A DNA stretch of 64,000 bases from a virus (Duplodnaviria; Caudoviricetes), in IMG/VR virus record IMGVR_UViG_3300037455_000250, positions 8,968-72,967 of that record; one strand, given 5' to 3'. The notes under the pieces were generated by a model that was given only the letters and a program-made list of their open reading frames with translations, had not been told where the DNA came from and did no database searches. Of this stretch, positions 3,850 through 34,762 are shown piece after piece. The translations under genes were made by a program, and so were the position numbers. How positions within the stretch are numbered: position 1 is the first letter of the stretch; each line of letters starts with the position of its first letter.

Positions 3850-4792
3850 CGCAGAACCAGAAGATATAATCACTGAGTTAAGAGCCCAGTTGGCAAAGAG
3901 CGGCATACAAAAGTTTGCGAAGATATTTGATAGTGGGGATGATTTAATGATTTGTTGCCCATATCATAAAGAAGGCCAAGAGCGTAATCCAAGTGCTGGC
4001 ATTAGAAAATCTGACGGACTATTTCACTGTCTTGCTTGTGGTGAAACACACGCATTAACCGAAATGATTAGTGATTGTTTGGGATATAATAACCCAATAT
4101 TAGGATATAAATGGCTGATACAGAATTTTGCAACAACAGAGGTCAGTTCTCGTGGAAAAATTATTGTTAATTATAGAAGGCTCAATAATGATAATGTGCC
4201 TGATATTAGTTCTCCAAAGATAAGTGAAGAAGAATTGGATAATTACCGATATATACACCCGTATCTGTATGAACGTGGTTTAACAGATGAAATTATAGAA
4301 AAGTTTGATATAGGGTATGACAAAGCGACTGACAGTATCACATTTCCTGTGAGAGATAATAATGGCGATTGTATGTTCGTTGCAAGACGGTCTGTTAAGA
4401 CACATCACTTTGATTTGCCTAAAGGCATAACAAAACCATTATATGGTATGTATGAGTTGACACATACAAAAGGGTTCGGAGTTAAATATCCTACAAAGTT
4501 ATATATCTGTGAAGGAACATTCGATTGTTTAAGATTTTGGTGTAATGATAAACTCGCAGTAGCGGGTTTTGGTTGTTTGTTTAATACATATCAGATAAAG
4601 CAAATACAAGATTTGCCGATTAGAACAGTAGTGATTGCCACAGACAACGATAAAGCAGGCTATGAGGCAAATAATAGATTGCGTAAACTATTAACAAACA
4701 AGGTAATCAAAGAAGTTATATGGCCAGAAGGTCGCAAAGACGCGGGCGAATGTACTGATGAAGAAATACAAAATCTCAAGGAGGTTCTATGA
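3824..4792 (+). CDS. dnaG: DNA primase (CHC2 zinc finger + TOPRIM)
   Basis: CCPYH...FHCLAC; ITFPVRD; CEGTFD; TDNDKAG. Confidence 0.9.
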   Translation: MNIDGTIINAEPEDIITELRAQLAKSGIQKFAKIFDSGDDLMICCPYHKEGQERNPSAGIRKSDGLFHCLACGETHALTEMISDCLGYNNPILGYKWLIQNFATTEVSSRGKIIVNYRRLNNDNVPDISSPKISEEELDNYRYIHPYLYERGLTDEIIEKFDIGYDKATDSITFPVRDNNGDCMFVARRSVKTHHFDLPKGITKPLYGMYELTHTKGFGVKYPTKLYICEGTFDCLRFWCNDKLAVAGFGCLFNTYQIKQIQDLPIRTVVIATDNDKAGYEANNRLRKLLTNKVIKEVIWPEGRKDAGECTDEEIQNLKEVL

Positions 4793-5460
4793 TATACACT
4801 TTTTGGGAAGGGTCAATGTCTGGATACATAAAATTGTGTTTAGATACTTGGCGTCAAGAGTTTACACTTTTGAATTATGACAACCTTAATAACTACACTA
4901 ACTTAGATATAAAGGCGTTACAGAATTATACCATTGCTCAAATATCCGATATTGTTCGTGTGCATATATTAAGAGATAACGGTGGATATTGGGTTGACGC
5001 AGATACTATTATGCTTACTGATTATTTGCCCGAAGAAAATATGATAGGTATGCCATCAGATAGAACTGCACATTGTGGGTATCTTCATTTTGATAAGAAC
5101 GCTACTATGCTAAAAGAGTGGGCAGAAAAGCAAGATATGATTATCAGTTCAGGTAGCACGGGTGAATGGGACTTATTTGCAAACTCTCTTTCTGACCCGC
5201 TTGTTAAGAAGTATGATGAAGTTACCATAAAAGACAGGCAATTATATTTTCCCGAAAGTTATATGTCTATTGAAAATAATCCATATTGTCAATACAGAGA
5301 TTTTTATTTTGATAATCATTATCAAGTATCGGATATAAAGCCGACTGAACTGCTTATGTTACACAATTCTTGGACACCATCTTGGTATAAAGATTTAAGT
5401 GAGATAGAGGTACTAACTAAAACAAGAACAATGTCAAATATATTAAAGGAGGTTTTATGA
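4789..5460 (+). CDS. GT32/capsular-polysaccharide-synthesis-like glycosyltransferase
   Basis: IYTFWEG, CLDTW, SDIVRVHILRDNGGYWVDAD (DXD). Confidence 0.75.
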   Translation: MIYTFWEGSMSGYIKLCLDTWRQEFTLLNYDNLNNYTNLDIKALQNYTIAQISDIVRVHILRDNGGYWVDADTIMLTDYLPEENMIGMPSDRTAHCGYLHFDKNATMLKEWAEKQDMIISSGSTGEWDLFANSLSDPLVKKYDEVTIKDRQLYFPESYMSIENNPYCQYRDFYFDNHYQVSDIKPTELLMLHNSWTPSWYKDLSEIEVLTKTRTMSNILKEVL

Positions 5461-6116
5461 GATACATAATTATGTGTGGTGGCAAGTATCATCAATGGAA
5501 AAAACCGAGACAACTCACACGAATATTTGGTGAAACACTTATTGAGCGTACAACTCGATTATTGAAGATGTGTGGAGTTAGTGGTCACGATATTTGGGTT
5601 AGTACATCTAATGCAGAAATGGTGCGTTCAATATTGCAAGAAGTGCCACATACACACATTGTGGTACACAATAATCCTTTTGAAGTGATTAGTCCGAGTA
5701 TTATTACTGGATATTGGTGTGACTGTTTTTATCCAATGACAGAGCCGTGTACTTATATAATGGGTGATGTTGTATTTTCAGAAAAAGCCATAGAAACGAT
5801 TGTTAAGACAGAAACTACCGATATTGAGTTTTTTGCGTCAGCGCCGCCATTTACTAAACAGTATTCAAAAGAGTGGGCAGAGCCTTTTGCTTTTAAGGTA
5901 TTTGACCAAGAACACTTGAAGTCTGCACAACTCAAAACAAAACAATTATGGGATGAACACAAATTTAATCGACACCCTATTGCGTGGGAGTTTTGGCAAG
6001 TAGTGAAAGATACACCACTAAATCAGATAGATTATACTAATTACACAGTTATTAATGATTATACCTGTGACATAGATAAGCCAGAAGATATTAAATACTT
6101 TGAAGGAGTAATGTAA
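5457..6116 (+). CDS. GT-A-fold nucleotidyltransferase-like protein (LicC/MobA-like)
   Basis: IIMCGG...KPRQL...GETLIERT N-terminus; IMGDVVF; C-terminal DIDKPED. Confidence 0.7.
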   Translation: MRYIIMCGGKYHQWKKPRQLTRIFGETLIERTTRLLKMCGVSGHDIWVSTSNAEMVRSILQEVPHTHIVVHNNPFEVISPSIITGYWCDCFYPMTEPCTYIMGDVVFSEKAIETIVKTETTDIEFFASAPPFTKQYSKEWAEPFAFKVFDQEHLKSAQLKTKQLWDEHKFNRHPIAWEFWQVVKDTPLNQIDYTNYTVINDYTCDIDKPEDIKYFEGVM

Positions 6117-6337
6117 TGATTAGGCGCAGAGTAGTTGAGTGTGATGTTTGTGGGGAAGAAGTTGGGGCTAATTCATATAAGATAATCAGAGCAAAGGATA
6201 TATTAAATTGTTGGGATGACCCTGTATTTGTTTTTTCAGATAAGTATATTCTTTGTGGAGATTGTGAGTATCGGATTAAACGCATAACAAAACGAATGAA
6301 AAATATTATAAATACTAAAGAGAAAGGAAAACGCTAA
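6116..6337 (+). CDS. small Zn-finger protein
   Basis: CDVC...CGDC; overlapping start/stop coupling. Confidence 0.65.
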   Translation: MIRRRVVECDVCGEEVGANSYKIIRAKDILNCWDDPVFVFSDKYILCGDCEYRIKRITKRMKNIINTKEKGKR

Positions 6338-7026
6338 TGGCATACTATTTAATTCATACTTGCAACCAACGATTTTGGTATGTAAAAGAGTATTTAATCC
6401 CGTCTATGATGTTACAAGGCATTCCAGCAGATAATATATTTGTCTATCGGGATTATAACGAGATTGGAAATCTAAGGGCATTCATTGATAGTTGTAATAA
6501 GAATGTTCAACAGTGCGAGAAGAATGGCATTAGCGGAGTTTGGCACTTACAAGATGATATAATTGTCAGTAATGACTTTGCACAAAAGACACAGTTATAT
6601 GATAACGGATTAGTTTGTGGGTTTACTTGTGCTTACGATAAACAACCAGAAGAGGGTTTCTTTCAGTTATATCAACAAAAGATGTGGTATAGTTTTCCGT
6701 GTATGCGAATACCAACAAGCGTGTTAAGAGCGTTCGTTGATTGGGCAAATGTAAATCTATGGCAAAGTAAATATTTTAAGTCGTGGGTTAAGAGAAACAA
6801 AGCAGATGATATGATTTTCAAAGAATGGCTATATGATAACTATCCAGATATGACACATCATAATCTTGCCCCAAACATTGTAAATCACATTGATAAGTAT
6901 TTAGGTGGTTCTGTTGTAAATACACAAAGAGATAAAGACCAAGATACTATGTCAATCTTTTGGGAAGACAACGGAGAGTTACAGAATGTAATGAAGTTCT
7001 TGCTTGACAGAAAACAGAATATTTAG
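6337..7026 (+). CDS. putative GT-A glycosyltransferase
   Basis: GNLRAF...HLQDDIIVS acidic motif, SFPC, PNIVNHID. Confidence 0.55.
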   Translation: MAYYLIHTCNQRFWYVKEYLIPSMMLQGIPADNIFVYRDYNEIGNLRAFIDSCNKNVQQCEKNGISGVWHLQDDIIVSNDFAQKTQLYDNGLVCGFTCAYDKQPEEGFFQLYQQKMWYSFPCMRIPTSVLRAFVDWANVNLWQSKYFKSWVKRNKADDMIFKEWLYDNYPDMTHHNLAPNIVNHIDKYLGGSVVNTQRDKDQDTMSIFWEDNGELQNVMKFLLDRKQNI

Positions 7027-7032
7027 TATAAT
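7004..7032 (+). promoter_or_regulatory. sigma-A promoter for ssb-polA
   Basis: TTGACA-17-TATAAT; -10 sits inside AATATT-N6-AATGTTT. Confidence 0.8.
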
Positions 7033-7085: not shown

Positions 7086-7766
7086 ATGGGCAGATTAACA
7101 GGCGACAACATTGAACAGTTTAGGAGTTACTCAGGTGACGGTTCAAACAACAGACGCAAATTTTTATCTCTTAAAGATAAGGGTTCAACCGCAAGAGGTA
7201 GAATTGTTTGTGAGAAAGCAGAAGATGTTGAGTGCTATGTAGTTCACAGAGTAAAAGTTGGTGACTACGAAAGAGAAGTAAATTGCTTGTATGAGCAGGG
7301 CGGTTCTATCGAAGATTGTCCGTTCTGCAAAGCAAAGTTAGACAGGTCAGCAAAGATTTATATCCCATTCTTTGACGAGGCAGATGGAGAAATTAAGATT
7401 TTTGAAAGACCTAACAGTTTTTACAGTAAGATTTCAAGTTATTGTTCCCGTTTCGCACCTATCGTTTCGTATGATATAGAGATTGTACGCAATCACGAAA
7501 AGGACAGTAAGAAACCCGATTTTGATATTTTCCCTGGTAAGTCAGATGGAGCAACTGTTGAGGATATTCTGGATGACGCAGGTGTTGAAGAATTGCCAAA
7601 GATTTTAGGTGTATATGTTCTTGACAAAACCGCAGATGATATGGAATATTATCTCGAACACAACGAGTTTCCAGAAACAAGAAGTGAAGATACTCCTATA
7701 AGACGAGGAAGTTCATCAGAAGAAGAAAGACCCCGTAGAAGAGGACGCAGTGGAGATAGGTTCTAA
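7086..7766 (+). CDS. gp32-like single-stranded DNA-binding protein
   Basis: FLSLKDKG, VVHRV, NCL...CPFC Zn motif, YDIEIVR; charged tail; immediately upstream of the polymerase. Confidence 0.7.
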   Translation: MGRLTGDNIEQFRSYSGDGSNNRRKFLSLKDKGSTARGRIVCEKAEDVECYVVHRVKVGDYEREVNCLYEQGGSIEDCPFCKAKLDRSAKIYIPFFDEADGEIKIFERPNSFYSKISSYCSRFAPIVSYDIEIVRNHEKDSKKPDFDIFPGKSDGATVEDILDDAGVEELPKILGVYVLDKTADDMEYYLEHNEFPETRSEDTPIRRGSSSEEERPRRRGRSGDRF

Positions 7767-10066
7767 TGTCACAGTTGTCTTTGTTCGGCGATAGGTTTGA
7801 CAAAGAAACCGATTTAGAAATCGCAAAACAATCTAAACAGAAGTCCAAGAGAAATGCCGTTACTGTAAAAGGTAACGGCATACTTGACAAGATAGCAATT
7901 ATTAGGAACAATGTCGAGAACGCACTTGGCAAATATAAAGACAGATATGTTTGTATTCAAGATATGGACACTTTGCGTAAATACATTGATACCTGTTTAG
8001 ATGATGGCAGAATTGCATTAGATACAGAAACGACAGGACTTAATGTATTCAAAGATAAGATAGTTGGTATATGTCTTAAATCAAAGAGCAATAAAGGAGC
8101 ATACATACCAATTAACCATGTTTCATATAACATAGCAGATAATACATTTACTCGTATTGATACCCAATTAACGATTGAGCAAGTAAGGCCTGAATTGAAA
8201 AGACTTGCCGAAAATATCAAAGAGGTTGATATGTTTAACTCATTCTTTGATAAGAGAGTAATCAAGCACAATTTTGGGCTTTACTTCCCTTGTACTTGGG
8301 AGTGTTCTATCGGAGCAAAGATACTTAATGAGAATATGAACGAGAAGGACTATAACTTAAAGTTCCAACATTCTTACTATGTTCTTAACGGCGAGGAAGA
8401 CGAGTTTAGATTTGGTGATTTGTTTAATGATATAGGGTTTGATAAATGTCCTATTGATTGTGCGACCATATATGGTGGGCATGACGCCGATGATACATTT
8501 GAGTTGTCAGATTTTCAGCGTGAGCATATCTATTATGAGCCGGATTGCACATTTGCAGATAGAAACGGAATGAATGGTGCGTCTTGGTGTTTCTTTAACA
8601 TTGAAATGCCGTGTGTTGACGCAACAATCGAACTTGAAGAAAACGGCATAGCACTTGACCTAAACTATCAAAAAGAATTATCAGAGAGATACAATAAAAA
8701 AGCAAAGGAAATACTTGATAGATTTAGTACAGAGTTAGAGCCATATAATGAGCAGTTAGACGCATTAAGACGGCAAGGTGTTAAACTCGATAATCCTATA
8801 AATATAGGCAGTCCAAAGCAGTTAGCAGTATTACTATATGATGTGCTTAATGTAGGTGTTATAGAGAAGAAAAGTCCGAGGGGTACAGGAGAAGAAATCT
8901 TAACAAAGATTGATAACCCTATTGTTAAAACTATTCTTGATTATCGTAGTGTTCAAAAACTTATAGGCACATATATTGATAAATTGCCTACTTGTCTTGA
9001 AGATGATGGAAGAATACACGCACAGTTTCATCAATATGGTGCGAGAACTGGTAGATTTAGTTCAAGTAATCCAAATTTACAAAATATTCCATCACACAAC
9101 AGAGATATTAGACCTATGTTTGTTGCAAGTCCAAATCATTTATTGATTTCTATGGACTACTCACAACAAGAGCCTTCGTGTCTTGCCGCTTTCTGTAAAA
9201 AGATGGGTTACGATAATCTGTTTAATGCACGATTTAAGGGAAATGACTTATACAGTGAGGTTGCAAGTGCTATCTTTAATCTTCCTTATGATGATTGTGT
9301 TGAGCATAGAGCAGACGGCACGATTAATAAAGAAGGTAAAGCAAGACGAAATGACGCTAAACCAGTTCTGTTAGGTATCTTATACGATAGAGGTGATGAT
9401 AGCGTTGCAGAGGCACTACACATAACATTAGAGCAAGCCAGACAACTTAAACGCAATCTGTATAAGAGATTTCCAGAGATACTTAAATTTGAGCAAGAGA
9501 GTGTCAGAATGGCGCAAGAGTTTGGTTATGTTGATACGATTTGTGGTCGTAAGTGTCGTATACCAGATATGATGTTAGATGATTATGACTTTAAGTGGAT
9601 TGACGCACCAAAAACTGATGATGTGCTTGATTTTGATGGTGATATTGTTGATGAAGTTCCAGACGAAATCTGTGATAAGTATTGGAACAGACTTCATCAA
9701 AAGTATGCAAAGAAAAGAGAAATCTTTGAAGAGGCAAATAAGAAAGACGGAATATGGATTATTGATAACACATTCAAGATAGCAGAGGCTACGAGAAAGT
9801 GTGTTAATTCTCGTATTCAAGGCAGTGCGGCAGACCTTACAAAGAAAGCAATGGCAGAAGTTCTTAAATGTAATCGACTGACAGAGTTAGGTTTCAAGTT
9901 ACTTATCCAAGTACACGACGAACTTATTGGAGAATGTCCAGAAGAAAATATTAAAGAATGTTCAAAGTTATTAGCAGAGGTAATGTCAAAGGCCGCAGAA
10001 GAACTTATCGGTATGCCGTTTAGTTGTGATGCAGAAATTACAAAAGCGTGGTACGGATTAGATTAA
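7766..10066 (+). CDS. polA: family A DNA polymerase with 3'-5' exonuclease
   Basis: ExoI DTETTG; TGRFSSSNPNLQNIP; motif A DYSQQE; motif B RNDAKPVLLGILY; NSRIQGSAAD; motif C QVHDEL; N-terminal QLSLF. Confidence 0.95.
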   Translation: MSQLSLFGDRFDKETDLEIAKQSKQKSKRNAVTVKGNGILDKIAIIRNNVENALGKYKDRYVCIQDMDTLRKYIDTCLDDGRIALDTETTGLNVFKDKIVGICLKSKSNKGAYIPINHVSYNIADNTFTRIDTQLTIEQVRPELKRLAENIKEVDMFNSFFDKRVIKHNFGLYFPCTWECSIGAKILNENMNEKDYNLKFQHSYYVLNGEEDEFRFGDLFNDIGFDKCPIDCATIYGGHDADDTFELSDFQREHIYYEPDCTFADRNGMNGASWCFFNIEMPCVDATIELEENGIALDLNYQKELSERYNKKAKEILDRFSTELEPYNEQLDALRRQGVKLDNPINIGSPKQLAVLLYDVLNVGVIEKKSPRGTGEEILTKIDNPIVKTILDYRSVQKLIGTYIDKLPTCLEDDGRIHAQFHQYGARTGRFSSSNPNLQNIPSHNRDIRPMFVASPNHLLISMDYSQQEPSCLAAFCKKMGYDNLFNARFKGNDLYSEVASAIFNLPYDDCVEHRADGTINKEGKARRNDAKPVLLGILYDRGDDSVAEALHITLEQARQLKRNLYKRFPEILKFEQESVRMAQEFGYVDTICGRKCRIPDMMLDDYDFKWIDAPKTDDVLDFDGDIVDEVPDEICDKYWNRLHQKYAKKREIFEEANKKDGIWIIDNTFKIAEATRKCVNSRIQGSAADLTKKAMAEVLKCNRLTELGFKLLIQVHDELIGECPEENIKECSKLLAEVMSKAAEELIGMPFSCDAEITKAWYGLD

Positions 10067-10144: not shown

Positions 10145-11350
10145 ATGACAAGACGAATAGCGATAATTAATCCTGTTGGAGTAGAAGGCGGTGGCGCAAC
10201 AACTTTATGTGTGCAATATGCAGGATTAGGTATAGATTGTTGGATGAAAAATACCGTAGATTACGCAAACTCAATCGTAGCGACAATACCAAATATCAAG
10301 CCATATTCAACAGATAATGATTTGTTAGATATTGCAACGAAGTATGATAGGTTATTATTTGTAAATATGTGGTTTGGGCATACTATGCCCGATAATGTAA
10401 TAGATAATGTAATTAAGTTACGAAAAAATTATCCTAATTTAGAGATTTGCTATATACATTGTTGTAGAGGATTAGGTGATTTATATACTTTATTACCAGT
10501 TTGTCAGCAACATAATTTTATGTTTGATTATATTTTTTCTTTACATCCTCAAATTACTTCTTTTCCATATTGTAAATCAGTGTTTATGAATATTAATGCG
10601 TGTATTTTGCCTGATTATTCACCATTAAGTGTTAATGAGAGAAATAATATTGTATTCACATCTGGTAGAGTAGAGGGGTTTAAAGGAGTAGTTAAATATT
10701 TTAATTCTATTGATGATGATTTTTTGGCCTCAACAGGAAAGTTTACGTATATACACGAAGGTGCAAAATATTCACATCATAAGAATAATGATGGAATAAG
10801 TTGTCCACCTCAAATGCTTTCAATATTTGACACAACAACGTCTCCGAAATCACTTAAACCACAGTATGTATTACGTGATTATGGGCAAGAGCCTTTGTGT
10901 GATAAATTTAATATTTATCCGTCTTATGATATGCGTTTTATACGTGATAGATGGAAACATTATTTTGCTGGTATTTGTTGTGTTCTCGGAACAACAAGCG
11001 GATATATGGTGGAGCAGACATTATTTGGCACAGAATATAAAATCAAGGATAAGCGAGAGAGAACATTAATAGATAAGCGTACAAATGATTGGGGAGATAC
11101 CTTAGAGTACGCAGACATTGAAAAAATGTCATTTGGTGTACCAGTATTTTTTTCTCGTAAGTTCTCGCAGATAATTGGGTTTACAGATGAGAGGTTAATA
11201 TACAATTCGTTTTCAGAGATACCGGAAAAGGTAAAGTTATTACACACGTATTATGATGATGTGCGAGAGGCACAGTATACGTGGTTACACGAAAAGTTAC
11301 AGAATGTAAATGCAACGATTTTAGAAAAGTTTACAGGAGATATAAACTAA
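10145..11350 (+). CDS. T4 AGT-like GT-B DNA glycosyltransferase
   Basis: 401 aa; GVEGGGAT, SGRVEGFKG and TLEYADIEKMSFGVPVFF resemble T4 alpha-glucosyltransferase motifs as recalled from memory. Confidence 0.7.
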   Translation: MTRRIAIINPVGVEGGGATTLCVQYAGLGIDCWMKNTVDYANSIVATIPNIKPYSTDNDLLDIATKYDRLLFVNMWFGHTMPDNVIDNVIKLRKNYPNLEICYIHCCRGLGDLYTLLPVCQQHNFMFDYIFSLHPQITSFPYCKSVFMNINACILPDYSPLSVNERNNIVFTSGRVEGFKGVVKYFNSIDDDFLASTGKFTYIHEGAKYSHHKNNDGISCPPQMLSIFDTTTSPKSLKPQYVLRDYGQEPLCDKFNIYPSYDMRFIRDRWKHYFAGICCVLGTTSGYMVEQTLFGTEYKIKDKRERTLIDKRTNDWGDTLEYADIEKMSFGVPVFFSRKFSQIIGFTDERLIYNSFSEIPEKVKLLHTYYDDVREAQYTWLHEKLQNVNATILEKFTGDIN

Positions 11351-12201
11351 TGCGTAATGATTTTGCCGTTTTCATTATAACTCACGGACGTCCTGATAAA
11401 CAACTTACATATGATACCTTGCGTAGATGTGGATATAATGGTAAAATTTATCTTGTAGTAGATAATACGGACAATACAATACAACAACACATAGATAAAT
11501 ATGGCGCAGAAAATATCATTGTGTTCGATAAGAACCATTATATAAATTCAGACAGATTTGATAATGGAACAGAGGGTGTTTTTGCGTGTGCCGTTTATGC
11601 AAGACGAGCAGTGGAAGATATAGCAAAAAGTATGAAGTTGGCATACTTTTGTATGATAGATGATGATGTTACCGATTTATGTCTAAGGATTCCATTAGAA
11701 AACAAAGTACGCAGATTAAAAATATATAATATGGATGAAATATTTAATGCGTATTTAGAGTTGTTAGAGATAAAACAAATTAGTTGTCTTGGTTTTGGCT
11801 ATCAAACTCTTTATTTTTCTGGTATGAAGTATTTTACAACAGATTTTAGGCCATTACCTTTTAGACTATTCATAAGAAAAACATCAGTAGATATTGATTG
11901 GTCTAATTGGTATGGTGAAGATGAGATTGCAGGATATCAAAGCAATATAAAAGGTCTATTATGGACTGCTATACCATTAGTTATGGTGACAACATCAGAA
12001 GAGGCTACAGGCGCTATGCAAACAACATATGAACAAACAACCTCTTTTTTACGTTCAATAGTTGAGTTAAGGTATGTTCCATCACAAGTAGTAATTGCGA
12101 CTTGTACGAGAGGTAAAAAGAAAGGAACACAACATCTATATAGAAGAAATCAAGATTGGTTTCCTAAAATCATAAGTAGCACGTATAAAAAGGAGATATG
12201 A
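11350..12201 (+). CDS. TAGT/GREB1-like GT-A glycosyltransferase 1
   Basis: FAVFIITHGRP, YLVVD, YARR, MIDDD, GEDE; start moved to ATG 11350. Confidence 0.8.
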   Translation: MRNDFAVFIITHGRPDKQLTYDTLRRCGYNGKIYLVVDNTDNTIQQHIDKYGAENIIVFDKNHYINSDRFDNGTEGVFACAVYARRAVEDIAKSMKLAYFCMIDDDVTDLCLRIPLENKVRRLKIYNMDEIFNAYLELLEIKQISCLGFGYQTLYFSGMKYFTTDFRPLPFRLFIRKTSVDIDWSNWYGEDEIAGYQSNIKGLLWTAIPLVMVTTSEEATGAMQTTYEQTTSFLRSIVELRYVPSQVVIATCTRGKKKGTQHLYRRNQDWFPKIISSTYKKEI

Positions 12202-12599
12202 ATATGCAGTTAGAGTTTTTTAACACACCAGAGGTAGATAGCAACAACAAGTACACAAAAAAGATTGCAATTCCACAGTATGTGCCTTCTGAGGTTGCAC
12301 CCACATTAAACGAACTCTGTAATTTATCAAAATATTCCGAATTGTTACGAGATATAAAATCTTCAAATGTAACAGAGGAAGAAAAAGAGTTTTTAATACG
12401 TGCGGCTACACGACACATTGTATTTAATTATGCGAAAATAGCGGATTATTATGCACACGCAACACCTGAAATGCAAAAACTTATGGAGAAATCTGCGTTA
12501 GTTATTATTGATTATGAGGATGCAATAGCAAATGGTTATGTGAAATTAAGTAGCACGATAAAGTCAATCATAGAGGAAACAAACAAAAATGAGAACTGA
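12198..12599 (+). CDS. small helical protein associated with TAGT-like genes
   Basis: coupled between the two TAGT-like genes; FNYAKIADYYAH...LVIIDYEDAIANG; N-terminal QLEFF. Confidence 0.65.
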   Translation: MNMQLEFFNTPEVDSNNKYTKKIAIPQYVPSEVAPTLNELCNLSKYSELLRDIKSSNVTEEEKEFLIRAATRHIVFNYAKIADYYAHATPEMQKLMEKSALVIIDYEDAIANGYVKLSSTIKSIIEETNKNEN

Positions 12600-13455
12600 T
12601 TTTGCAGTATTCGTTTTAAGTCACGGCAGAGCAAAAAGTCTTAAAACAATTAATTCTTTATTGTCGAGAGGGTATACTGGTAGATGGTATATTATTGTTG
12701 ATGATGAGGATGACCAAATATCGTTGTATCAACAAAATTTTGGGGAAGACCATATAATTGTGTTTGATAAGAAAGAAGTCGGCAAAACATTCGATATAAT
12801 GGATAATTTTGAAGGTCGACAAGTGCCGACTTTTGCTCGAAATGCGGTGTACGATATAGCAGATAATCTTGGGTTAAAATACTTTTATGAGGCAGATGAT
12901 GATTTAGTATGCTTTAGAGCAAGATTATTAGACAGTGAGGGTGTATTACGTACAGTCTATTTTAATGATATGGATAAAGTGTTTTCTGCATATCTTGATT
13001 ATATGGATAATGCAGAACGTATAGATGTATTAGCGTTTGGACAAACTGGAGATTTAATCGGCGGAAGTGGCTCAAAACTTTTTATAAAAGGATATATTAG
13101 AAAAGCCATGCAGGGATTTATTGTACGTGTGTCGAGTAGAATAACATATGTAGGAAGATTTAATGATGATGTTAATGCGTATGTTGACGCGGGTAAAATA
13201 GGTTATTTGTTCATTACATATAAAGATGTGATAATGGACACAATAGAAACACAGAAAAGCAAAGGCGGTATAACGGAAAATTATAAGAAATATGGTACCT
13301 ATGTTAAGTCTTTTTATTCTGTAATATTAGACCCGAGTTGTGTATTTATAAGCACAATGGGCTTTGGTAATTATAGAATACATCATCAGATAGATTGGGA
13401 AAAAGCGGTGCCTAAAATAATAAGTAGCGATTTTAAGAAAGGAGAGGCAGAATGA
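12589..13455 (+). CDS. TAGT/GREB1-like GT-A glycosyltransferase 2
   Basis: FAVFVLSHGRA, YIIVDD, FARN, EADDD, GRFNDDV, QKSKGG, YVKSFYS, HHQIDW. Confidence 0.85.
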   Translation: MRTDFAVFVLSHGRAKSLKTINSLLSRGYTGRWYIIVDDEDDQISLYQQNFGEDHIIVFDKKEVGKTFDIMDNFEGRQVPTFARNAVYDIADNLGLKYFYEADDDLVCFRARLLDSEGVLRTVYFNDMDKVFSAYLDYMDNAERIDVLAFGQTGDLIGGSGSKLFIKGYIRKAMQGFIVRVSSRITYVGRFNDDVNAYVDAGKIGYLFITYKDVIMDTIETQKSKGGITENYKKYGTYVKSFYSVILDPSCVFISTMGFGNYRIHHQIDWEKAVPKIISSDFKKGEAE

Positions 13456-14192
13456 AAGTAGGATTGTTCCCTATGGTAGCAGATGTATTACACGCCGGTC
13501 ATATACTCGCTATCAAAGAGGCAAAAGCAAACTGTGATTACCTTATAGTTGCGTTATATTGTAAACCTAAGAGAAAACCAAATATTGTGCAGAGTATCTT
13601 TGAGAGATATACTCAACTATCCGCAATCAAATTTGTTGATGAAGTGATGCCTTACGAAGATGAAGAGGATGTTTATAGGGTGTTGCTCTCTATTAAATTT
13701 GATGTATATTTTCTCGGCGCAGATTACAAGAATAAACGATTTGAAGGACAAGACCTCGTTGAAAATTTAGGCAAAGAAATTTATTACTTATCCCGTAATC
13801 ACACAATGAGTAGTTCCAAATTAAAATCAGATATTATTAAAAATGGCGCAAAACAAGAAACGAAAGATAAAGTTATTGCGGTTGATTTTGATGGGTGTAT
13901 TTGTAGTATGAATTATCCTGATATAGGAGAGCCTAATTGGGATGTAATCAATGCTCTTAAACAAGAAAAAGAGAACGGCGCAAAAATCATTTTATGGTCT
14001 TGTCGTGCTGATGAATATTTACGTGCGGCGATAGAGGCGTGTGATGAATGGGGATTACAGTTTGACGCAGTAAATGAAAACGTACCAGAAAGATTAGTTA
14101 AGTATGGATATTCCGATTCTCGAAAGGTTAGTGCTGACGAGTATTGGGACGATTTAGCAAAAGTTATTAAATTTAAAGGAGGACAGAATTAA
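13452..14192 (+). CDS. TagD-like cytidylyltransferase fused to a HAD-family phosphatase domain
   Basis: DVLHAGH (HxGH), FERY, GADY, SSSKLK; second domain VIAVDFDG...LWSCRA...DEYWDD. Confidence 0.85.
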   Translation: MKVGLFPMVADVLHAGHILAIKEAKANCDYLIVALYCKPKRKPNIVQSIFERYTQLSAIKFVDEVMPYEDEEDVYRVLLSIKFDVYFLGADYKNKRFEGQDLVENLGKEIYYLSRNHTMSSSKLKSDIIKNGAKQETKDKVIAVDFDGCICSMNYPDIGEPNWDVINALKQEKENGAKIILWSCRADEYLRAAIEACDEWGLQFDAVNENVPERLVKYGYSDSRKVSADEYWDDLAKVIKFKGGQN

Positions 14193-15268
14193 TGTCGACA
14201 TTTACAACAGAGAGGTTAAAGCAGTTAGTAGCGTATGTGATTAAGGGAGCAGGGTTCAAACCTAACTTTGAATTATCTGATAAAATCGGTATACGAGTTA
14301 GAGATGGTGTCTTGTACTTAAATACAACAGATGGTACAAATTATTTGAGTGTATCAGATAGGTGTGTGTCGGATAATTTCGATATTGTAGTAAATGCAGA
14401 GGTATTTTCAAAACTCATTGGTAAGATTACATCAGAAACCGTAGATATTATTGTTGTTGATGATACAAAACTTGAAGTAACCGGTAATGGTAAATATACA
14501 CTTGAACTTGTGCCAAGTGAGAGCGGTGAATTACTTTCATTTCCTGATAAATTTCCTGAAAATACAGTTGAAAAAGGAACAATATCTGCAAGTGATATAG
14601 TTGCAATAAATACCACTCTTAGTGCGTCACTGTCAAATAAAATCGGCAGTATCTATACAAACTATTATTTTGGTGAAGTCGTTGCAAGTACAGACCGTGC
14701 TATGATGGCAATTTTCAATCGTAAATTAGTAGATGATGTATACCTGTTTAATAAAGAATTTGTTGAACTAATGACATTGAGTGGTGCAGAGGTTTCTATA
14801 TCACAGAATGATAATGTAATTGTGGCAGAAAGTTCAATTAGTGAACACGGCTCAATTCGTGTTTGCACTATACTTCCAACAGATGTTGATAAGTTTGAGA
14901 TTGATGGCATTCGTAAGTTTGTATCTATGGAACTAACATCATTCTGTCGTATTCGTAAAGCAGAAATATTGGCTCTCCTTGATAGACTTTCACTGTTTGT
15001 AAGTGATAAGTTTGATGATGGTGCAATCATTCTTAATTTTAAGAAAGAATATGTTGAGGTTTCATCATTAGCAAGTAGCGGTGTTGAGCGTATCGAATAC
15101 ACCGAGTGTAAAGAGCCGATTGAATTGCAAATCAAGATTAATATTGATAGACTGCGTGACCAGTTAAAGTCATATACATCTGATATGGTAGATTTGTATT
15201 ACGGTAGTGATTTGTGTATTAAACTCGTTGATGGAGATATGACACAGTTAATCGCTTTAATGAAGTAA
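14192..15268 (+). CDS. dnaN: DNA polymerase III beta-like sliding clamp
   Basis: 358 aa; LYLNTTDG, ASTDRAMMA, KINIDRLRDQL and C-terminal LIALMK parallel DnaN; clamp loader encoded downstream. Confidence 0.75.
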   Translation: MSTFTTERLKQLVAYVIKGAGFKPNFELSDKIGIRVRDGVLYLNTTDGTNYLSVSDRCVSDNFDIVVNAEVFSKLIGKITSETVDIIVVDDTKLEVTGNGKYTLELVPSESGELLSFPDKFPENTVEKGTISASDIVAINTTLSASLSNKIGSIYTNYYFGEVVASTDRAMMAIFNRKLVDDVYLFNKEFVELMTLSGAEVSISQNDNVIVAESSISEHGSIRVCTILPTDVDKFEIDGIRKFVSMELTSFCRIRKAEILALLDRLSLFVSDKFDDGAIILNFKKEYVEVSSLASSGVERIEYTECKEPIELQIKINIDRLRDQLKSYTSDMVDLYYGSDLCIKLVDGDMTQLIALMK

Positions 15269-15291
15269 AGATAACAAACAAAACATTTATG

Positions 15292-15320
15292 TAGGGACTT
15301 GAAATATAGTCCCTATTTTT
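15292..15320 (+). terminator. intrinsic terminator
   Basis: TAGGGACT/AGTCCCTA stem followed by TTTTT. Confidence 0.85.
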
Positions 15321-22546: not shown

Positions 22547-22788
22547 TGACAGGATTAATTGTTGCAGTAACAATATTAGGAACATCATTTGTAGCATATG
22601 CAATATATAGTTTTATCCGTATGTATCAAATGACAAGAAATATGGACGCAATCGCACAGTGTTTTTTGACAATCGTGACACATCCAGAAGATGTGGATAT
22701 TATTGAAGATTACTCAACTAATGGCACAACATCAAAGTGTATGAAGTCTGATTGGAATTTTCCTAATACGGAGGGCGGTTTTCAATGA
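22546..22788 (+). CDS. small membrane protein
   Basis: N-terminal TM helix. Confidence 0.65.
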   Translation: MTGLIVAVTILGTSFVAYAIYSFIRMYQMTRNMDAIAQCFLTIVTHPEDVDIIEDYSTNGTTSKCMKSDWNFPNTEGGFQ

Positions 22789-23804
22789 GCGTATCACTTG
22801 CAATAAAATATAGACCCCAAAAGTTTGACGAGGTGGTAGAGCAATCTGCCACCAAGGTCATTCTCAAACAACAATTAGATAGCGGAGATATTAAGAACGC
22901 ATATTTATTCTGTGGTGGTGCAGGTACAGGCAAAACAACTTGTGCCAGAATATTTGCGAATGAAATTAATAAGGGTAAGGGTCTTCCCATTGAGTTAGAC
23001 GCCGCAAGTAATAACTCCGTAGATGATGTAAGAGAGATTATTCAGCAAGCCAAAACAAACGCATTAGATAGTGAGTATAAAGTGTTTATTATGGATGAAG
23101 TCCACGCACTATCAAACAATGCGTGGCAGGCTATGTTGAAGATACTCGAAGAACCACCAAAAAAGTCCATATTCATTATGTGTACGACAGACCCACAGAA
23201 GATACCAAAGACAATTCTTTCAAGAGTGCAGAGATACAATTTCCAACGAATTAGTCATAAGGCGATTGTTGAGAGATTATGGTATGTGGTTAAGTGTGAG
23301 TTTGAGAACGGTTACCAAATTCGAGCCACAGATGAGGCTCTTGATTTTATCGCAAAGCAGGCACAGGGCGGAATGAGGGACGCTTTGACAATGCTTGATA
23401 AGTGTCTCGCATATTCAGAAGATTTAACCATTGATAGTGTTGTTAAGGCATTAGGAATGTCTGATTATTCTTATATGATTGACTTGTTATATGCGGTTGT
23501 AATCGTAGATTGTAAAGGTCAGATAGATGTTATCAATAAAGTATATATGTCTGGTATTGACTTAAAGCAGTTTATTAAGGACTTTACAGTCTTTGTGTTA
23601 GATTGTTGCAAGTATGATTTACAGGTAGATTTTAAGCATTGTTCTTGTCCTGATACACCAGACATTTGTGATGTGTTTGAGAGTGCTTGTAAAGATATAG
23701 ATATTATTAACTTGTTACGCAGTCTTATTAGATTGCAAACAGATATTAAATGGGACACTAATCCGAAGAGCCGTCTGGAAGCCTGGTGCATAACTGGTGA
23801 ATAA
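22785..23804 (+). CDS. dnaX: DNA polymerase III gamma/tau-like clamp loader ATPase
   Basis: LAIKYRPQKF, GGAGTGKTT, ELDAASNNSVDD, MDEVHAL, LKILEEPP, ILSRVQ, GGMRDA. Confidence 0.95.
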   Translation: MSVSLAIKYRPQKFDEVVEQSATKVILKQQLDSGDIKNAYLFCGGAGTGKTTCARIFANEINKGKGLPIELDAASNNSVDDVREIIQQAKTNALDSEYKVFIMDEVHALSNNAWQAMLKILEEPPKKSIFIMCTTDPQKIPKTILSRVQRYNFQRISHKAIVERLWYVVKCEFENGYQIRATDEALDFIAKQAQGGMRDALTMLDKCLAYSEDLTIDSVVKALGMSDYSYMIDLLYAVVIVDCKGQIDVINKVYMSGIDLKQFIKDFTVFVLDCCKYDLQVDFKHCSCPDTPDICDVFESACKDIDIINLLRSLIRLQTDIKWDTNPKSRLEAWCITGE

Positions 23805-23860
23805 GTGCTATTGTGTACTATTTTATTGTGTGATATATTGTATGTGAAAGGAGCGTTTAT

Positions 23861-24535
23861 ATGAAATCATACAAAGTATATATTCACACATTTCCCAATA
23901 ATAAGCGTTATGTTGGCATTACAAGCAGTAGCACATTACACCGTTGGGGTGACCATGGACAAGGTTATGCAAATCAAAAATTGATGTGGAGAGCAATTCA
24001 AAAATACGGTTGGGATAATATCCAACACATTGTTATTGCAGACAATCTTACTAAAAAACAGGCGTGTGCATTAGAGATACAGTTAATTGCTCTCTTTCAA
24101 TCAAATAAACCAAGATATGGCTATAATGTTTCAGACGGAGGAAATATTCCTGCGCCTCGTTCAGAAGAAACACAAAGACGCATTACTGAAAAATTGCGTG
24201 GTAGAAAACTCTCGGAAGAAACAAAAAAGAAAATATCAAAAAGCCATCTTGGAGAATTAAACGCATTTTATGGTAAAAAGCACACGGAAGAAACAATAAC
24301 TAAATTAAGAATTGCACATACGGGTAAAAAAGCAACAGAGCGTACAAAACAAAAGTTAAGCGAACAACGGAAAGGAAAACATAAGTCGCAAGAGCATAAA
24401 AACAAATTGAGTAAGTCTTTGCTTGGACATTCTGTATCTGAGGAAACTCGATTGAAAATGTCATTGGCTAAAAAAGGACGAAAATTGTCAGAAGAAACTC
24501 GCAGAAAAATGAGCGAGGCACATAAACGAAAATAA
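23861..24535 (+). mobile_element. free-standing GIY-YIG homing endonuclease with NUMOD3-like repeats
   Basis: YKVYIH...KRYVGIT...RW, GYNVSDGG, repeated SEET(K/R)xKIS; inserted at the dnaX 3' end. Confidence 0.9.
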
Positions 24536-24537
24536 TA

Positions 24538-24573
24538 TCAAGAATAGAGGCTTGGTGTATTGCAAAGGAGTAA
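24538..24573 (+). pseudogene. stranded original 3' end of dnaX
   Basis: encodes SRIEAWCIAKE*, against the current dnaX end SRLEAWCITGE*. Confidence 0.8.
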
Positions 24574-24575
24574 CT

Positions 24576-25391
24576 ATGATTGGACAGACAGTATTAAGAG
24601 AGCGTATTAACGGTCAGATAGAGCGTAAGAAATTTCCGAGATTTTCAATCTTAATAGGTGAAAAGGGAAGTGGTAAGAAAACACTTGCCAAAGAGATTGC
24701 AAAGAATTTGGGAATAAGTGCCGTAATGACAGAAACCACAGTTGATAACATTCGACAGGTAATAGACGATTGTTATAAGATTATTGAGCCGTTGGTGTTT
24801 ATATTACCAGACTGTGACAATATGTCCTCTGCGGCGGCTAATGCTCTTTTGAAAGTAACAGAGGAACCTCCGCAAAGAGCCTACTTTATCCTTACCTGTG
24901 AAAGTATTGACAATCTTCTACCAACACTTAAAAGTCGTGGCGTAACTTATATGCTTGAACCTTATTCGTATGAGGATAAATGTGATTATCTTGATAATCT
25001 TGAAATGTCAGATGAAGATATGGAGTTTATTCTTGGAGTATCTTCAACTATAGGCGATGTTAAAACTATGTCAGAAATGAACATCACGGAGTTTAAAGAT
25101 TATGTTGAGTTGGTAATAGATAATATCGCAGAGGTATCTGTCAGCAACGCATTTAAGATAGGTGATAAGATTGCTCTTAAAGATGAGGAAGACAAATATA
25201 ATCTTAAACTTTTCTGGAAAGCGTTTAACGCAGTATGTGTGGACAGAATGAAACAAAGCGATTATCCTGTTATGTATTCAAACGCAATCGCAATTACTGG
25301 TGATTTTGCTCAACAGTTACATATAAGAGGTATAAACAAGCAAATGCTATTTGATGGTTGGCTACTTAAAATCAGAGAGGCTTGGGTATGA
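24576..25391 (+). CDS. holB: clamp loader delta-prime-like subunit
   Basis: GEKGSGKKTLA, VDNIR, AANALLKVTEEPP, LLPTLKSRG. Confidence 0.9.
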   Translation: MIGQTVLRERINGQIERKKFPRFSILIGEKGSGKKTLAKEIAKNLGISAVMTETTVDNIRQVIDDCYKIIEPLVFILPDCDNMSSAAANALLKVTEEPPQRAYFILTCESIDNLLPTLKSRGVTYMLEPYSYEDKCDYLDNLEMSDEDMEFILGVSSTIGDVKTMSEMNITEFKDYVELVIDNIAEVSVSNAFKIGDKIALKDEEDKYNLKLFWKAFNAVCVDRMKQSDYPVMYSNAIAITGDFAQQLHIRGINKQMLFDGWLLKIREAWV

Positions 25392-26332
25392 ACATTACTG
25401 ATGTTAAAACTCAAATCAAGAACAAGGATATACAGTCATACTATATCTTTGCTGGTGATGAGATTGAGATACAGAGAATATACATTAACAAGATTGCAGA
25501 GGTACTTGGCTATGAAGTAGTTAGAGCGGACACAATCGCAGATGTTTGGTCAAGTATCATAACACCAGCTTTGTTTGATAAACCTTGTGTGTATGTTGTT
25601 CGTGACGATAAAGACCTATTACAAAATGAAAAGTTAAATGAAAAGTTAAATAGTAAAACGGAAAACTTAAATGATAATGTCATTATCAATTTGATAACAA
25701 CAGTAGATAAGCGTACAAAATGGTATAAAGCAAATAGCGATAAAATCATTCTATTTGAGCGTTTAAGTGATACAGTCTTAAAGAAATACATTCAGCGTGA
25801 GATAGCACTAAATAACGCTAATTGTGAGCGTTTAATCGCTATATGTGAGAGTGATTATTCACGCATACTTTTAGAGATAGACAAAATCAAACGCTATGTT
25901 AATTATTTAGGACCGGCAGAGTTGTTTGACGGAGTATTTGTGAAGTTAGTTGAAGATGGGACAATTTACACGCCACCTAAAGACGCAATCTTTGATTTAG
26001 TGGACGCTATATTAAAGAGAAATGTTCCGCTTGTGTATGACTTGCTTGAACAGTGTTATGCAGTTGGAGAGGCAAATATGGTTATCTTGTCTGTTCTATA
26101 TAACAATGCAAAACAGGTGTTACAAGTTCAAGCGTGTGAAAGTTCGGATGTTTGTAAGTCAACAGGATTAACTTCTTGGCAAGTAAAGTGTGCAAAAGAA
26201 AAATGTGGTCATTATTCTCTTGGCGAGTTGGAACGCATTTTGAAATTGATACAAGAAACACAGAAAGGAATAATCACAGGACAGATTGAAGATAGTTTGT
26301 CCGTAGAAAGATTATTGGTAGAGATTTTATGA
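25388..26332 (+). CDS. holA: clamp loader delta-like subunit
   Basis: YYIFAGDE, LF..P, DKRTKWYK, EIDKI, AIFDLVDAI; follows dnaX/holB. Confidence 0.85.
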   Translation: MNITDVKTQIKNKDIQSYYIFAGDEIEIQRIYINKIAEVLGYEVVRADTIADVWSSIITPALFDKPCVYVVRDDKDLLQNEKLNEKLNSKTENLNDNVIINLITTVDKRTKWYKANSDKIILFERLSDTVLKKYIQREIALNNANCERLIAICESDYSRILLEIDKIKRYVNYLGPAELFDGVFVKLVEDGTIYTPPKDAIFDLVDAILKRNVPLVYDLLEQCYAVGEANMVILSVLYNNAKQVLQVQACESSDVCKSTGLTSWQVKCAKEKCGHYSLGELERILKLIQETQKGIITGQIEDSLSVERLLVEIL

Positions 26333-31748: not shown

Positions 31749-32066
31749 TTACTTACCTCTCATATCTGCGGTTGTGAGTGTTCTTGCTCCTTGATAGCCA
31801 CAATTCCACATTGTTGCACTTTTACCTTCATATTCAGTTACGGCATATCCATACTGCGATAACAAGAATTTTAATTCGGTCTGAATTTTTGAGGTTGTAC
31901 GGCTATACTTCTTAACATTGACCTTTGCCGTTTTATTTTCTCGGTCAATCTGACAAATTTCTGTGGAGTAGTTGAATAGGGTATCATTTGCACAACCTAA
32001 GTGCCCATATGCTCCAAACTTCTTCTTTCCTGTGATGTACTGTCTGATAAAATCGGTGTTATTCAT
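31749..32066 (-). CDS. hypothetical early protein
   Basis: GAGGG RBS; TLFNYSTEIC...YSRTTSKIQ. Confidence 0.7.
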   Translation of the reverse strand: MNNTDFIRQYITGKKKFGAYGHLGCANDTLFNYSTEICQIDRENKTAKVNVKKYSRTTSKIQTELKFLLSQYGYAVTEYEGKSATMWNCGYQGARTLTTADMRGK

Positions 32067-32079
32067 TGTTATTCCCTCC

Positions 32080-32724
32080 TTAACCTTCAAGTGCGTTTCT
32101 TTTCATAGCGTTATATCCAGCAGTTTTGCCTGTTCTAAATGCCTCTCCGTTATATGCTCGCGGTGTGCTTGTTCTTACTCGTCGGAATCCCTTTGTGTGG
32201 TCAGCATATAATTCTTTAACATCTTCTGGAACGACCACCATCAATGCTTTGCTCTGTTCAGCAAGGGCTTCTTTAATACCTTCAACAAAACCAATTACAC
32301 AGGAATTGTAAACATTATCGGCATATCCGTACTTCGCTTTAGCCTCTCTATACAGTTTATTTCCTAAACTGTTACCCATATCGAATAAGTAATTAAATGT
32401 TTCTGCGGCAATCATCACGTCGGTCTTGTGTCCAAAGAATACGATTGTACCCTTACCGTGTAAAAAGTGCTTACATCTGAAATTATCCGCTACGGTGCGA
32501 GCAAGTGAATACTTCCACTTCTTTGCGGGAACATCAATCTCTACTTCGCCGATAGGCTCTTCTTTTGTGATATCCACATTCTCGACCTCTGCCAAGGCAA
32601 TATTATACTGTTGCATTAATTCCTGTGCTTTGCAGGCAGCAGAGATTGCCTCTTCTTTGGACGGGTTGTTCTTGGATAACTCAAACAATTTCTTAATCTT
32701 TTCCAAAACCTTTTCATTTTCCAT
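32080..32724 (-). CDS. DUF2786-domain protein
   Basis: KVLEKIKKLFELSKNNPSKEEAISAACKAQELMQQYNI. Confidence 0.85.
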   Translation of the reverse strand: MENEKVLEKIKKLFELSKNNPSKEEAISAACKAQELMQQYNIALAEVENVDITKEEPIGEVEIDVPAKKWKYSLARTVADNFRCKHFLHGKGTIVFFGHKTDVMIAAETFNYLFDMGNSLGNKLYREAKAKYGYADNVYNSCVIGFVEGIKEALAEQSKALMVVVPEDVKELYADHTKGFRRVRTSTPRAYNGEAFRTGKTAGYNAMKRNALEG

Positions 32725-32772
32725 TTTAGTTTCCTCACTTTCTGTAAACATTATCTATCGTTTACACTTACT

Positions 32773-32828: not shown

Positions 32829-32841
32829 TTATCATAAACGA

Positions 32842-34746: not shown

Positions 34747-34762
34747 AGTGCTGTCTCCTTCC

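Follow-up and report, generated by a model that had tools for sequence, protein, structure and literature searches.

A replication operon of a Caudoviricetes virus with homologues of both classical DNA glucosyltransferase families and without a known base-activating enzyme

Among described systems, the T-even phages carry the nearest counterparts of the genes reported here, namely the alpha-glucosyltransferase (AGT) of T4 (CAZy family GT72), which glucosylates 5hmC of duplex DNA with UDP-glucose as donor, and the beta-glucosyl-HMC-alpha-glucosyltransferase of T2 and T6, which acts on hydroxymethylcytosine (HMC) and is the prototype of the TAGT family. Other phages encode clusters in which C5 methyltransferases (C5-MT) and 5mYOX (TET) dioxygenases are joined by glycosyltransferases. 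These clusters follow a post-replicative logic, and their GT-A and GT-B enzymes come with their own HAD and cytidylyltransferase supply (Burke et al., 2021, PMC8256090; bioRxiv 10.1101/2023.12.21.572611). They are often found near ParB, clamp, polymerase or terminase genes, and one set, consisting of a HAD-APH (HAD-kinase), a cytidylyltransferase and a GT-B enzyme, makes heptosyl-5-hydroxymethylcytosine (heptosyl-5hmC) in Escherichia coli (bioRxiv 10.1101/2023.12.21.572611). Iyer et al. (2013), as cited in PMC8256090, already linked ParB to TET/JBP clusters. In the 5mYOX176/ParB176 system, a ParB-like protein with a nucleotide-binding domain (NBD) and a C-terminal domain (CTD), and with no DNA-binding domain, is genetically locked to a DNA-modifying enzyme; ParB176 activates the thymine dioxygenase 5mYOX176 only on double-stranded DNA (dsDNA), and both the NBD and the CTD are needed (O'Toole et al., PNAS 2026, PMC13229309). 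Here we describe a set of glycosylation genes in the replication operon of a virus of the Caudoviricetes. The stretch of DNA analysed, hereafter the window, comprises 64,000 nucleotides and corresponds to bases 8968-72967 of IMG/VR record IMGVR_UViG_3300037455_000250. The full record of 72,967 bp is called G000, and the related viral records, loci or cultured phage genomes compared with it carry L numbers. The DNA-replication operon of G000 holds five sugar transferases and two sugar-activating enzymes.

G000 combines the same two folds as the T-even phages and, on structural grounds for the AGT-like enzyme, apparently the same two families, with a similar logic of sequential sugar addition. 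It differs from them in lacking a dCMP hydroxymethylase, a dCTPase or other pre-replicative machinery, in having a CTD partner and a dedicated nucleotidyltransferase-phosphatase in addition, and in its host, which is probably an anaerobic member of the Bacillota and not an enterobacterium. The post-replicative logic and the dedicated donor supply are shared with the C5-MT/5mYOX clusters, whereas the methyltransferase, the 5mYOX and the APH-type kinase are missing and the phosphatase is fused to the transferase. In this respect G000 belongs with the ~65% of glycosyltransferase contigs that are not tied to a base-modifying enzyme (bioRxiv 10.1101/2023.12.21.572611). We suggest that the cluster probably glycosylates the phage's own DNA after replication, and that it is co-transcribed with the genes for single-stranded DNA-binding protein (SSB), polymerase and clamp. 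Its core lies between a family A polymerase gene (polA) and a clamp gene, where the five + strand open reading frames (ORFs) reported in an earlier sequence-only reading of the window are all present, as one coupled operon:

10145 to 11350, + strand: AGT-like GT-B glycosyltransferase, 401 aa, from its AlphaFold2 (AF2) model and the structure match of that model to T4 AGT
11350 to 12201, + strand: TAGT1, TAGT-family GT-A enzyme, 283 aa from a revised start (PF20691, 3.6e-22)
12198 to 12599, + strand: stand-alone ParB-like C-terminal domain (CTD), 133 aa, from identity to the C-terminus of a ParB_N protein
12589 to 13455, + strand: TAGT2, TAGT-family GT-A enzyme, 288 aa (PF20691, 1.9e-27; phrog_842, 6.4e-52)
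13452 to 14192, + strand: cytidylyl/adenylyltransferase-HAD phosphatase fusion (CT-HAD), 246 aa (CTP_transf_like, 9.2e-9; BT0820 HAD, 1.2e-22)

The assignments of an AGT-like GT-B enzyme, two TAGT GT-A enzymes and cytidylyltransferase and HAD domains were upheld by Pfam and by comparison of AF2 structures. The AGT-like protein has no match in Pfam, PHROG or NCBIfam, and a profile of its family searched against PDB sequences did not find AGT and returned only spurious plasmoredoxin matches. Its AF2 model (predicted local distance difference test score, pLDDT, 91) has T4 AGT as best Foldseek match (E 1.9e-14), followed by T4 beta-glucosyltransferase as the next family. In VIA-align the model matched T4 AGT with a Z of 28.6 and a root-mean-square deviation of 3.1 A over 336-339 of its 401 residues, at only 17-18% identity, the next unrelated GT-B enzyme being TarM (Z 21.6). 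As modelled, the 401-aa protein has a GT-B fold of two Rossmann-like domains and a specific structural homology to T4 AGT. Its 35 homologues are metagenomic; none was found in cultured phages, including by tblastn against phage records.

The two TAGT enzymes score 79.7 bits (TAGT1) and 97 bits (TAGT2) against PF20691, where the cut-off is 27.5; this Pfam family includes the T2/T6 enzyme and TET-associated DNA glycosyltransferases. A TAGT profile searched against PDB sequences gave nothing useful. The acidic, DXD-type motif of GT-A enzymes is conserved, with residues D104-D105 invariant in 17/17 TAGT1 and TAGT2 sequences, and D38/D41 likewise. TAGT1 conserves the DDD motif, is missing the RIHH motif of the TAGT2 clade and is not present in the related loci L063 and L064, and it may be an optional second transferase. 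TAGT2 is 40-74% identical to homologues from phages of Bacillota, Bacteroidota, Enterobacteria and Vibrio, from Methanosphaera and from a Haloarcula virus, with 40-46% identity across viruses of Bacteroidota, Bacillota, Proteobacteria, a methanogen and a haloarchaeon. Its alignment contains 67 invariant columns, including DDED, FDIMDNF and D104-D105. Because TAGT2 is conserved across these hosts, a universal acceptor such as nucleic acid is favoured over a host-specific envelope polymer or a phage-specific structural protein. The polA-clamp position of the module is syntenic in L002, L003, L063 and L064. L003 has the same gene set as G000 (AGT-like, TAGT1, CTD, TAGT2, CT-HAD), L002 lacks the AGT-like gene, L064 has AGT-like, CTD, TAGT2 and CT genes, and L063 has AGT-like, CTD, a radical SAM enzyme and TAGT2, so that only CTD and TAGT2 are constant in this lineage. 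Since some phages carry CTD and TAGT2 only, it is TAGT2, and not the AGT-like enzyme, that appears to be indispensable and is probably initiating.

The protein encoded between the two TAGT genes had been read as a small helical partner. The 133-aa ORF is there, and its identity can be refined: on its sequence relationships it is the C-terminal domain of a ParB-like protein, of which the NBD would have been lost in G000. It is 51% identical over 110 aa to residues 139-248 of L013:8286-9047, a 253-aa protein with an N-terminal ParB_N domain, and it matches the C-terminus of phrog_620 (1.9e-9). The orthologues in L006-L018 and in others do have ParB_N. An Atlas search with the poor model of the 133-aa protein (pLDDT 0.45) gave no usable feature match. 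The start of the CTD (window 12240-12290) carries an almost invariant Y-[TS]-x-K-x3-P-x-Y-x-P motif followed by AAxRHxVFNYxKIADYYAH. Judged from the alignment, this N-terminal motif appears conserved far beyond the need of a plain dimerisation domain.

The linkage of the two constant genes was followed in 53 loci that carry a TAGT2-type gene; they come from cultured phages, viral contigs and genomes or metagenome-assembled genomes (MAGs), and cover bacterial and archaeal viruses. The CTD is encoded directly upstream of the TAGT2-type gene in 48 of them, on its own (130-160 aa) or as part of a ParB_N+CTD protein of 240-310 aa, and the two form a near-obligate pair. The most frequent TAGT2 neighbours after the CTD are terminase large subunits, a cytidylyltransferase occurs in 16/53 loci, and no other enzyme family is common to the 53. 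The CTD family has 1,387 representatives at 50% identity; of the best 150, 32 match ParB_N at E<=0.001, and a single one, P0283, is a TAGT-CTD fusion. P0283 (534 aa; JGI sample 3300072015, 16.6-kb contig) has a TAGT domain at residues 5-193 and beyond and the CTD at 404-516. The fusion occurs on three contigs and its TAGT part is of the TAGT1 kind; a second TAGT gene and then a large terminase gene lie 3' of it, with a Dam methylase two genes upstream. This arrangement corresponds to the TAGT1, CTD, TAGT2 order of G000.

Carriers of the pair include Bacteroidaceae, Clostridia, Blautia, Oscillospiraceae, Desulfovibrionaceae, Methanosphaera, Vibrio phages, halovirus HHTV-2 and Rac-like E. coli prophages, and the pair is found mostly in strict anaerobes. 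In Escherichia phage vB_EcoS-666R9 (L023:5217-6933) and in E. coli genomes, a ParB-like + TAGT cassette of Rac-like prophages is flanked by trkG and the gene for the small terminase. Its ParB-like gene is ynaK in the PGAP annotation, and the cassette DNA matches 1,580 of 5,426 complete E. coli genomes, 889 of them covering >=80% of the cassette. Our literature search located no functional study on ynaK/ydaY or on the Lactobacillus delbrueckii phage ParB/glucosyltransferase. The YnaK+TAGT cassette, found in Rac-like E. coli prophages, L. delbrueckii phage c5, L. gasseri phage phi jlb1 and HHTV-2, shares with G000 the same CTD, the TAGT2 clade (40-46% identity), the gene order, the overlapping genes and the lack of TS (thymidylate synthase) and TET. 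The cassette sits beside the terminase, whereas the G000 pair is in a replication operon, has lost the ParB NBD and has gained the AGT-like GT-B enzyme, the second TAGT and the donor-supply enzyme. This combination is particular to G000, as are two more GT-A enzymes and a second nucleotidyltransferase nearby in a complete genome without a known activator. Relatives of the G000 locus also have the ParB176-like NBD+CTD architecture upstream of TAGT2, a comparison made on domain architecture. In contrast to 5mYOX176/ParB176, the partner is a glycosyltransferase and not a dioxygenase, and the G000 lineage keeps the CTD only.

The enzymes that make a hydroxylated acceptor base in known systems are missing. 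A six-frame profile search of the whole of G000 at E<=1 found no thymidylate synthase (PF00303), Tet_JBP (PF12851), C5 methylase, N6/N4 methylase, TGT, 2OG-FeII_Oxy_2, 2OG-FeII_Oxy_3 or radical SAM enzyme. The absence of a hydroxymethylase, TET/JBP or DNA methylase noted earlier for the 64 kb therefore holds and extends to the 8,967 bases beyond the window. No TS or Tet_JBP match was found in 14 related viral records (four of them >=91% complete), nor in the complete genomes of c5 (31.8 kb), phi jlb1, HHTV-2 and vB_EcoS-666R9. Because the complete G000 also lacks it, the suggestion that the acceptor enzyme is encoded outside the window falls, a conclusion to which the relatives and cultured phages add. 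The gap appears from these genomes to be a trait of the whole family, since near-complete relatives and cultured carriers of the pair are also without TS and TET. To judge from the gene content, the acceptor would not come from a known phage route, whether a TS-type hydroxymethylase or hydroxylase, TET/JBP, a methylase with TET, or DpdA. An O2-dependent dioxygenase is also unlikely as a universal answer, because most carriers seem to infect strict anaerobes. The 70.6-kb phage contig L063 encodes a 322-aa radical SAM enzyme (L063:8567-9535) between the CTD gene and TAGT2, at the spot taken in G000 by TAGT1 and CT-HAD. Its matches are generic MoaA/SPASM-like ones without an equivalog, and it could either activate a base independently of oxygen or tailor a sugar nucleotide.

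The last gene of the module points to a dedicated sugar donor. In CT-HAD, residues 11-106 match CTP_transf_like and residues 141-235 a BT0820-type HAD phosphatase; the motifs HAGH (HxGH of the transferase) and DFDG (HAD) are present. The phosphatase is not of the GmhB type and its score is below the equivalog cut-off. The earlier description of a TagD-like cytidylyltransferase-HAD protein stands for the fusion and the fold and fails for TagD itself: TIGR01518 (TagD) gives 3.9e-15 and 56.1 bits against a cut-off of 165.4, and rfaE_dom_II (HldE domain II) is slightly better at 2e-16 and 60.1 bits against 181.5. In the PDB, the sequence matches are 1coz (TagD, 7.8e-10) and 2obb, and in the L064 orthologue rfaE_dom_II is preferred over TagD by six orders of magnitude. 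The transferase is joined to a HAD phosphatase in the G000 lineage and to an unrelated His_Phos_1 in L006-L016; elsewhere it stands alone. Because two unrelated phosphatases fill one role, a phosphatase-then-nucleotidyltransferase route to an NDP-sugar is indicated. From these domains, a dedicated NDP-sugar made by the logic of sugar-1-phosphate supply fits CT-HAD better than a polyol-phosphate cap does. The donor may be heptose-like, a weak guess made because the HldE-domain-II score equals or betters that of TagD and a heptosyl-5hmC route has been published.

The module is enclosed by replication genes and by candidate transcription signals:

7004 to 7032, + strand: promoter-like site, TTGACA-17-TATAAT, 12/12, ahead of the SSB gene (consensus scan)
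7766 to 10066, + strand: family A DNA polymerase (polA), the 5' neighbour (Pfam DNA_pol_A, 5.8e-85)
14192 to 15268, + strand: beta-clamp-like processivity factor, the 3' neighbour (phrog_947, 1.1e-23; DNA_pol3_beta, 3.1e-4)
15291 to 15316, + strand: terminator-like hairpin followed by a T run, closing the unit (scan)

From the AGT-like gene through the clamp gene, consecutive genes overlap by 1, 4, 11, 4 and 1 nt, and because of these overlaps they are translationally coupled through the clamp gene. The site at 15291-15316, 3' of the clamp gene, was the sole + strand terminator-like site in the scan. The site at 7004-7032 may drive the SSB, polA, glycosylation and clamp genes in one unit, which is suggestive in a scan where the total of promoter-like sites in G000 was not above that of shuffled sequence. 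TAGT1 almost certainly starts, on sequence grounds, at the ATG at 11350 instead of 11281, since this ATG overlaps the upstream stop (TAATG), has AGGAG 11 nt upstream and is where the homologues start.

Borders of 10145-14192, as drawn earlier, are too narrow for the glycosylation genes, as further ones lie at 4789-7026, between the primase and SSB genes:

4789 to 5460, + strand: GT32-like DXD glycosyltransferase, 223 aa (Caps_synth PF05704, 1.4e-10; Gly_transf_sug, 2.9e-4)
5457 to 6116, + strand: MobA-like NTP transferase, 219 aa (Pfam NTP_transf_3, 2.8e-6)
6116 to 6337, + strand: 73-aa ORF coupled between the NTP transferase and ORF229 (ORF call)
6337 to 7026, + strand: ORF229, GT-A-fold glycosyltransferase (AF2 model, Foldseek)

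The GT32-like gene overlaps the primase stop, is missing from the relatives L002 and L003 and is probably accessory. The MobA-like protein, 45% identical to a 206-aa gene product encoded beside an ORF229 homologue in L025, is a putative second nucleotide-sugar or alcohol-activating enzyme. ORF229 has no Pfam, PHROG or NCBIfam match, its profile found nothing useful among PDB sequences, and hhalign gave no relation to TAGT. It has 171 homologues with the invariant motifs WHLQDD and NHID. Its AF2 model (pLDDT 93) has top Foldseek matches that are all GT-A (E 4e-6 to 1e-4), among them Mimivirus R655, beta-1,4-GalT, heparosan synthase, TarP and GLT25D1. ORF229 was considered as a hidden dioxygenase and rejected, as the fold of the model is GT-A.

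The NTP transferase and ORF229 form a mobile pair. In a related 70.8-kb phage (L025:7396-8651) it lies between portal and scaffold genes, with an ADP-ribosyltransferase-toxin-like gene (PF03496) and a DUF4417 gene upstream; in another relative it is 3' of lysis genes. The placement in L025 is moron-like and hints at glycosylation of a virion protein or another non-DNA target. Because the pair is mobile and occurs in head and lysis modules of relatives, it may serve a different target from that of the polA-clamp module.

G000 is 100% complete by CheckV, and no terminal repeats were found. The host was read as an anaerobic member of the Bacillota from the relatives of the polymerase, the G+C content, the MAG labels of module relatives and the genes of the outer 9 kb. 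The family A polymerase shares 40% identity with its counterparts in Clostridium phage phiCTP1 and Streptococcus phage Dp-1, the G+C range is 32-43%, and close relatives of the module are held by the MAG contigs L029 and L061, labelled Firmicutes and Candidatus Fimenecus. The 9 kb beyond the window encode an SH3 lysin, a BclA_C protein and a rubrerythrin-like ORF, the last of which fits an anaerobic host. The BclA C-terminal-domain protein and the 96-aa rubrerythrin-like ORF lie just 5' of a SNF2 helicase gene (L001:5846-6772, genome bases 5846-6772). A megablast of the region against 50,697 phage records gave zero matches. Pfam scans of about 55 G000 ORFs returned replication, recombination, lysis and structural roles only, and about 40 small ORFs are without annotation.

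Other features of these genomes lie outside the sugar genes. A complete bacterial-type clamp loader (DnaX-like, delta-prime-like and delta-like genes) is encoded at window 22785-26332 alongside the phage's own clamp, and a GIY-YIG/NUMOD3 homing endonuclease (23861-24535) interrupts it between the first and second genes. In L064 (L064:3782-7008) a GIY-YIG endonuclease gene splits the family A polymerase gene into ORFs of 528 and 309 aa. On the minus strand, window 31749-42406 holds ~30 small ORFs, most without a family, across which the GC skew flips; this block contains an FtsK/SpoIIIE-like ATPase (33379-34092) and a DUF2786/DUF7168 protein (32080-32751).

In the mechanism that we propose, the CTD would hold or activate TAGT2 on dsDNA, by analogy with ParB176, and TAGT2 with the CTD would carry out the initiating, indispensable step. 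CT-HAD would convert a sugar bisphosphate to a sugar-1-phosphate and then to a dedicated NDP-sugar donor, heptose-like by precedent. Further sugars, or a second linkage, would come from TAGT1 and the AGT-like GT-B enzyme, and the GT32-like enzyme and the NTP-transferase/ORF229 pair could add more, or act on another target. DNA is the preferred target because of the two DNA-glucosyltransferase families, the position in a replisome operon, the ParB-derived partner and the conservation of TAGT2 across unrelated envelopes and virions. That the acceptor is DNA without a phage-made hydroxymethyl base is a tentative proposal, somewhat short of probable. Its more specific form is more doubtful: the CTD-TAGT2 pair would put a sugar directly on a canonical base, for example on an exocyclic amine, or on another DNA atom, and G000 would extend this to a multi-sugar glycan with the AGT-like enzyme, TAGT1 and a dedicated NDP-sugar. 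There is a substantial chance that the underlying chemistry is new.

Several points weigh against glycosylation of DNA by this route. No acceptor-making enzyme was found in G000, in the 14 related records or in the four complete cultured phages. To our knowledge, all DNA glycosylations characterised so far are O-linked to a hydroxylated base, a pyrimidine from a TS-type enzyme or from TET/JBP, and relatives of TAGT are able to glycosylate proteins, as in animal GREB1. A position in the replication module is no proof of a DNA target, because the NTP-transferase/ORF229 pair is found in the head and lysis modules of relatives. No sugar kinase for a heptose route was found among the G000 ORFs scanned with Pfam, which is why the guess at the donor is weak. 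ParB_N (PF02195) is absent throughout G000 (six frames, E<=1), and ParB176 needs its NBD. Finally, the Tet_JBP searches of relatives and cultured phages had no positive control above cut-off, and thousands of divergent 5mYOX-bearing contigs are missed by PF12851 (PMC13229309).

The alternative that survives best, which we consider unlikely, is that the target is not DNA at all, and is instead a virion protein, a host factor, the CTD protein itself, a cell-envelope polymer or a small nucleotide. In that case the ParB-like domain would bind nucleotides or serve as a scaffold and play no role on DNA, and proteins with the ParB/Srx fold do include small-molecule kinases. The acceptor base is not available in the genomes searched, the Y-[TS]-x-K-x3-P-x-Y-x-P motif of the CTD is a possible acceptor peptide, and the NTP-transferase/ORF229 pair is placed between portal and scaffold in L025 and elsewhere after lysis genes. 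The ~65% of phage glycosyltransferase contigs without a 5mYOX/ThyS neighbour have also been considered 'less likely' DNA pathways by the authors who surveyed them (bioRxiv 10.1101/2023.12.21.572611). However, the solved structure that the GT-B enzyme resembles most, and by far, is that of a DNA glucosyltransferase, and the core module lies between polymerase and clamp genes in five related phages. TAGT2 is also too conserved across unrelated host envelopes and phage virions for a lineage-specific target, and the characterised ParB-like partner of NBD+CTD architecture works on dsDNA (PMC13229309).

Less likely again is a hidden activator, by which the sugars would be placed, in the manner of T-even, RB69 and TET-type phages, on 5-hydroxymethyl- or 5-hydroxy-pyrimidine made by an unrecognised small-ORF product or by a host enzyme. 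The nearest solved relative of the AGT homologue acts on 5hmC, many divergent 5mYOX escape PF12851 (PMC13229309), and there are about 40 small G000 ORFs among which such an enzyme could lie; in the relatives, the best lead is the radical SAM gene between CTD and TAGT2 in L063. Yet neither TS, Tet_JBP, 2OG-FeII_Oxy_2/_3 nor radical SAM was detected in G000 even at E<=1 in six frames. The largest unknown ORF of the cluster, ORF229, proved to be GT-A in its model, and no enzyme-sized unannotated ORF beside the module is common to G000, L002, L003 and L004. Phage c5 carries the pair in a genome of 31.8 kb that leaves no space for a known activator, and O2-dependent dioxygenases should fail in the strict anaerobes where the pair is mostly found.

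The sequence-only reading had further allowed for a glycan terminated by a polyol-phosphate from CDP-glycerol, which is very improbable: among solved structures TagD gives the transferase domain its best sequence match, but its 56 bits are far under the 165-bit equivalog cut-off, both CT-HAD and its L064 orthologue favour rfaE_dom_II, no glycerophosphotransferase or other TagB/TagF/LicD-type phosphotransferase is present in the genome regions scanned, and CDP-glycerol synthesis has no role for a fused phosphatase.

G000 thus joins homologues of both classical DNA glucosyltransferase families and its own donor supply to neither a TS-type nor a TET/JBP enzyme, and the same gap holds for the CTD-TAGT2 core in complete cultured-phage genomes and in about 1,580 of 5,426 complete E. 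coli genomes. The target of an orphan phage glycosyltransferase becomes experimentally addressable in tractable phages and prophages. Should the target turn out not to be DNA, a different function would have to be assigned to the TAGT family and its ParB-like partners. If it is DNA, there would be a new acceptor chemistry or a new oxygen-independent activation route, with consequences for the evasion of restriction and CRISPR, for sequencing bias in gut viromes and for enzyme tools. If unhydroxylated DNA is indeed glycosylated directly, the DNA modification would belong to a new chemical class, one that is widespread among viruses infecting anaerobic bacteria and archaea and reaches a quarter of E. 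coli genomes.

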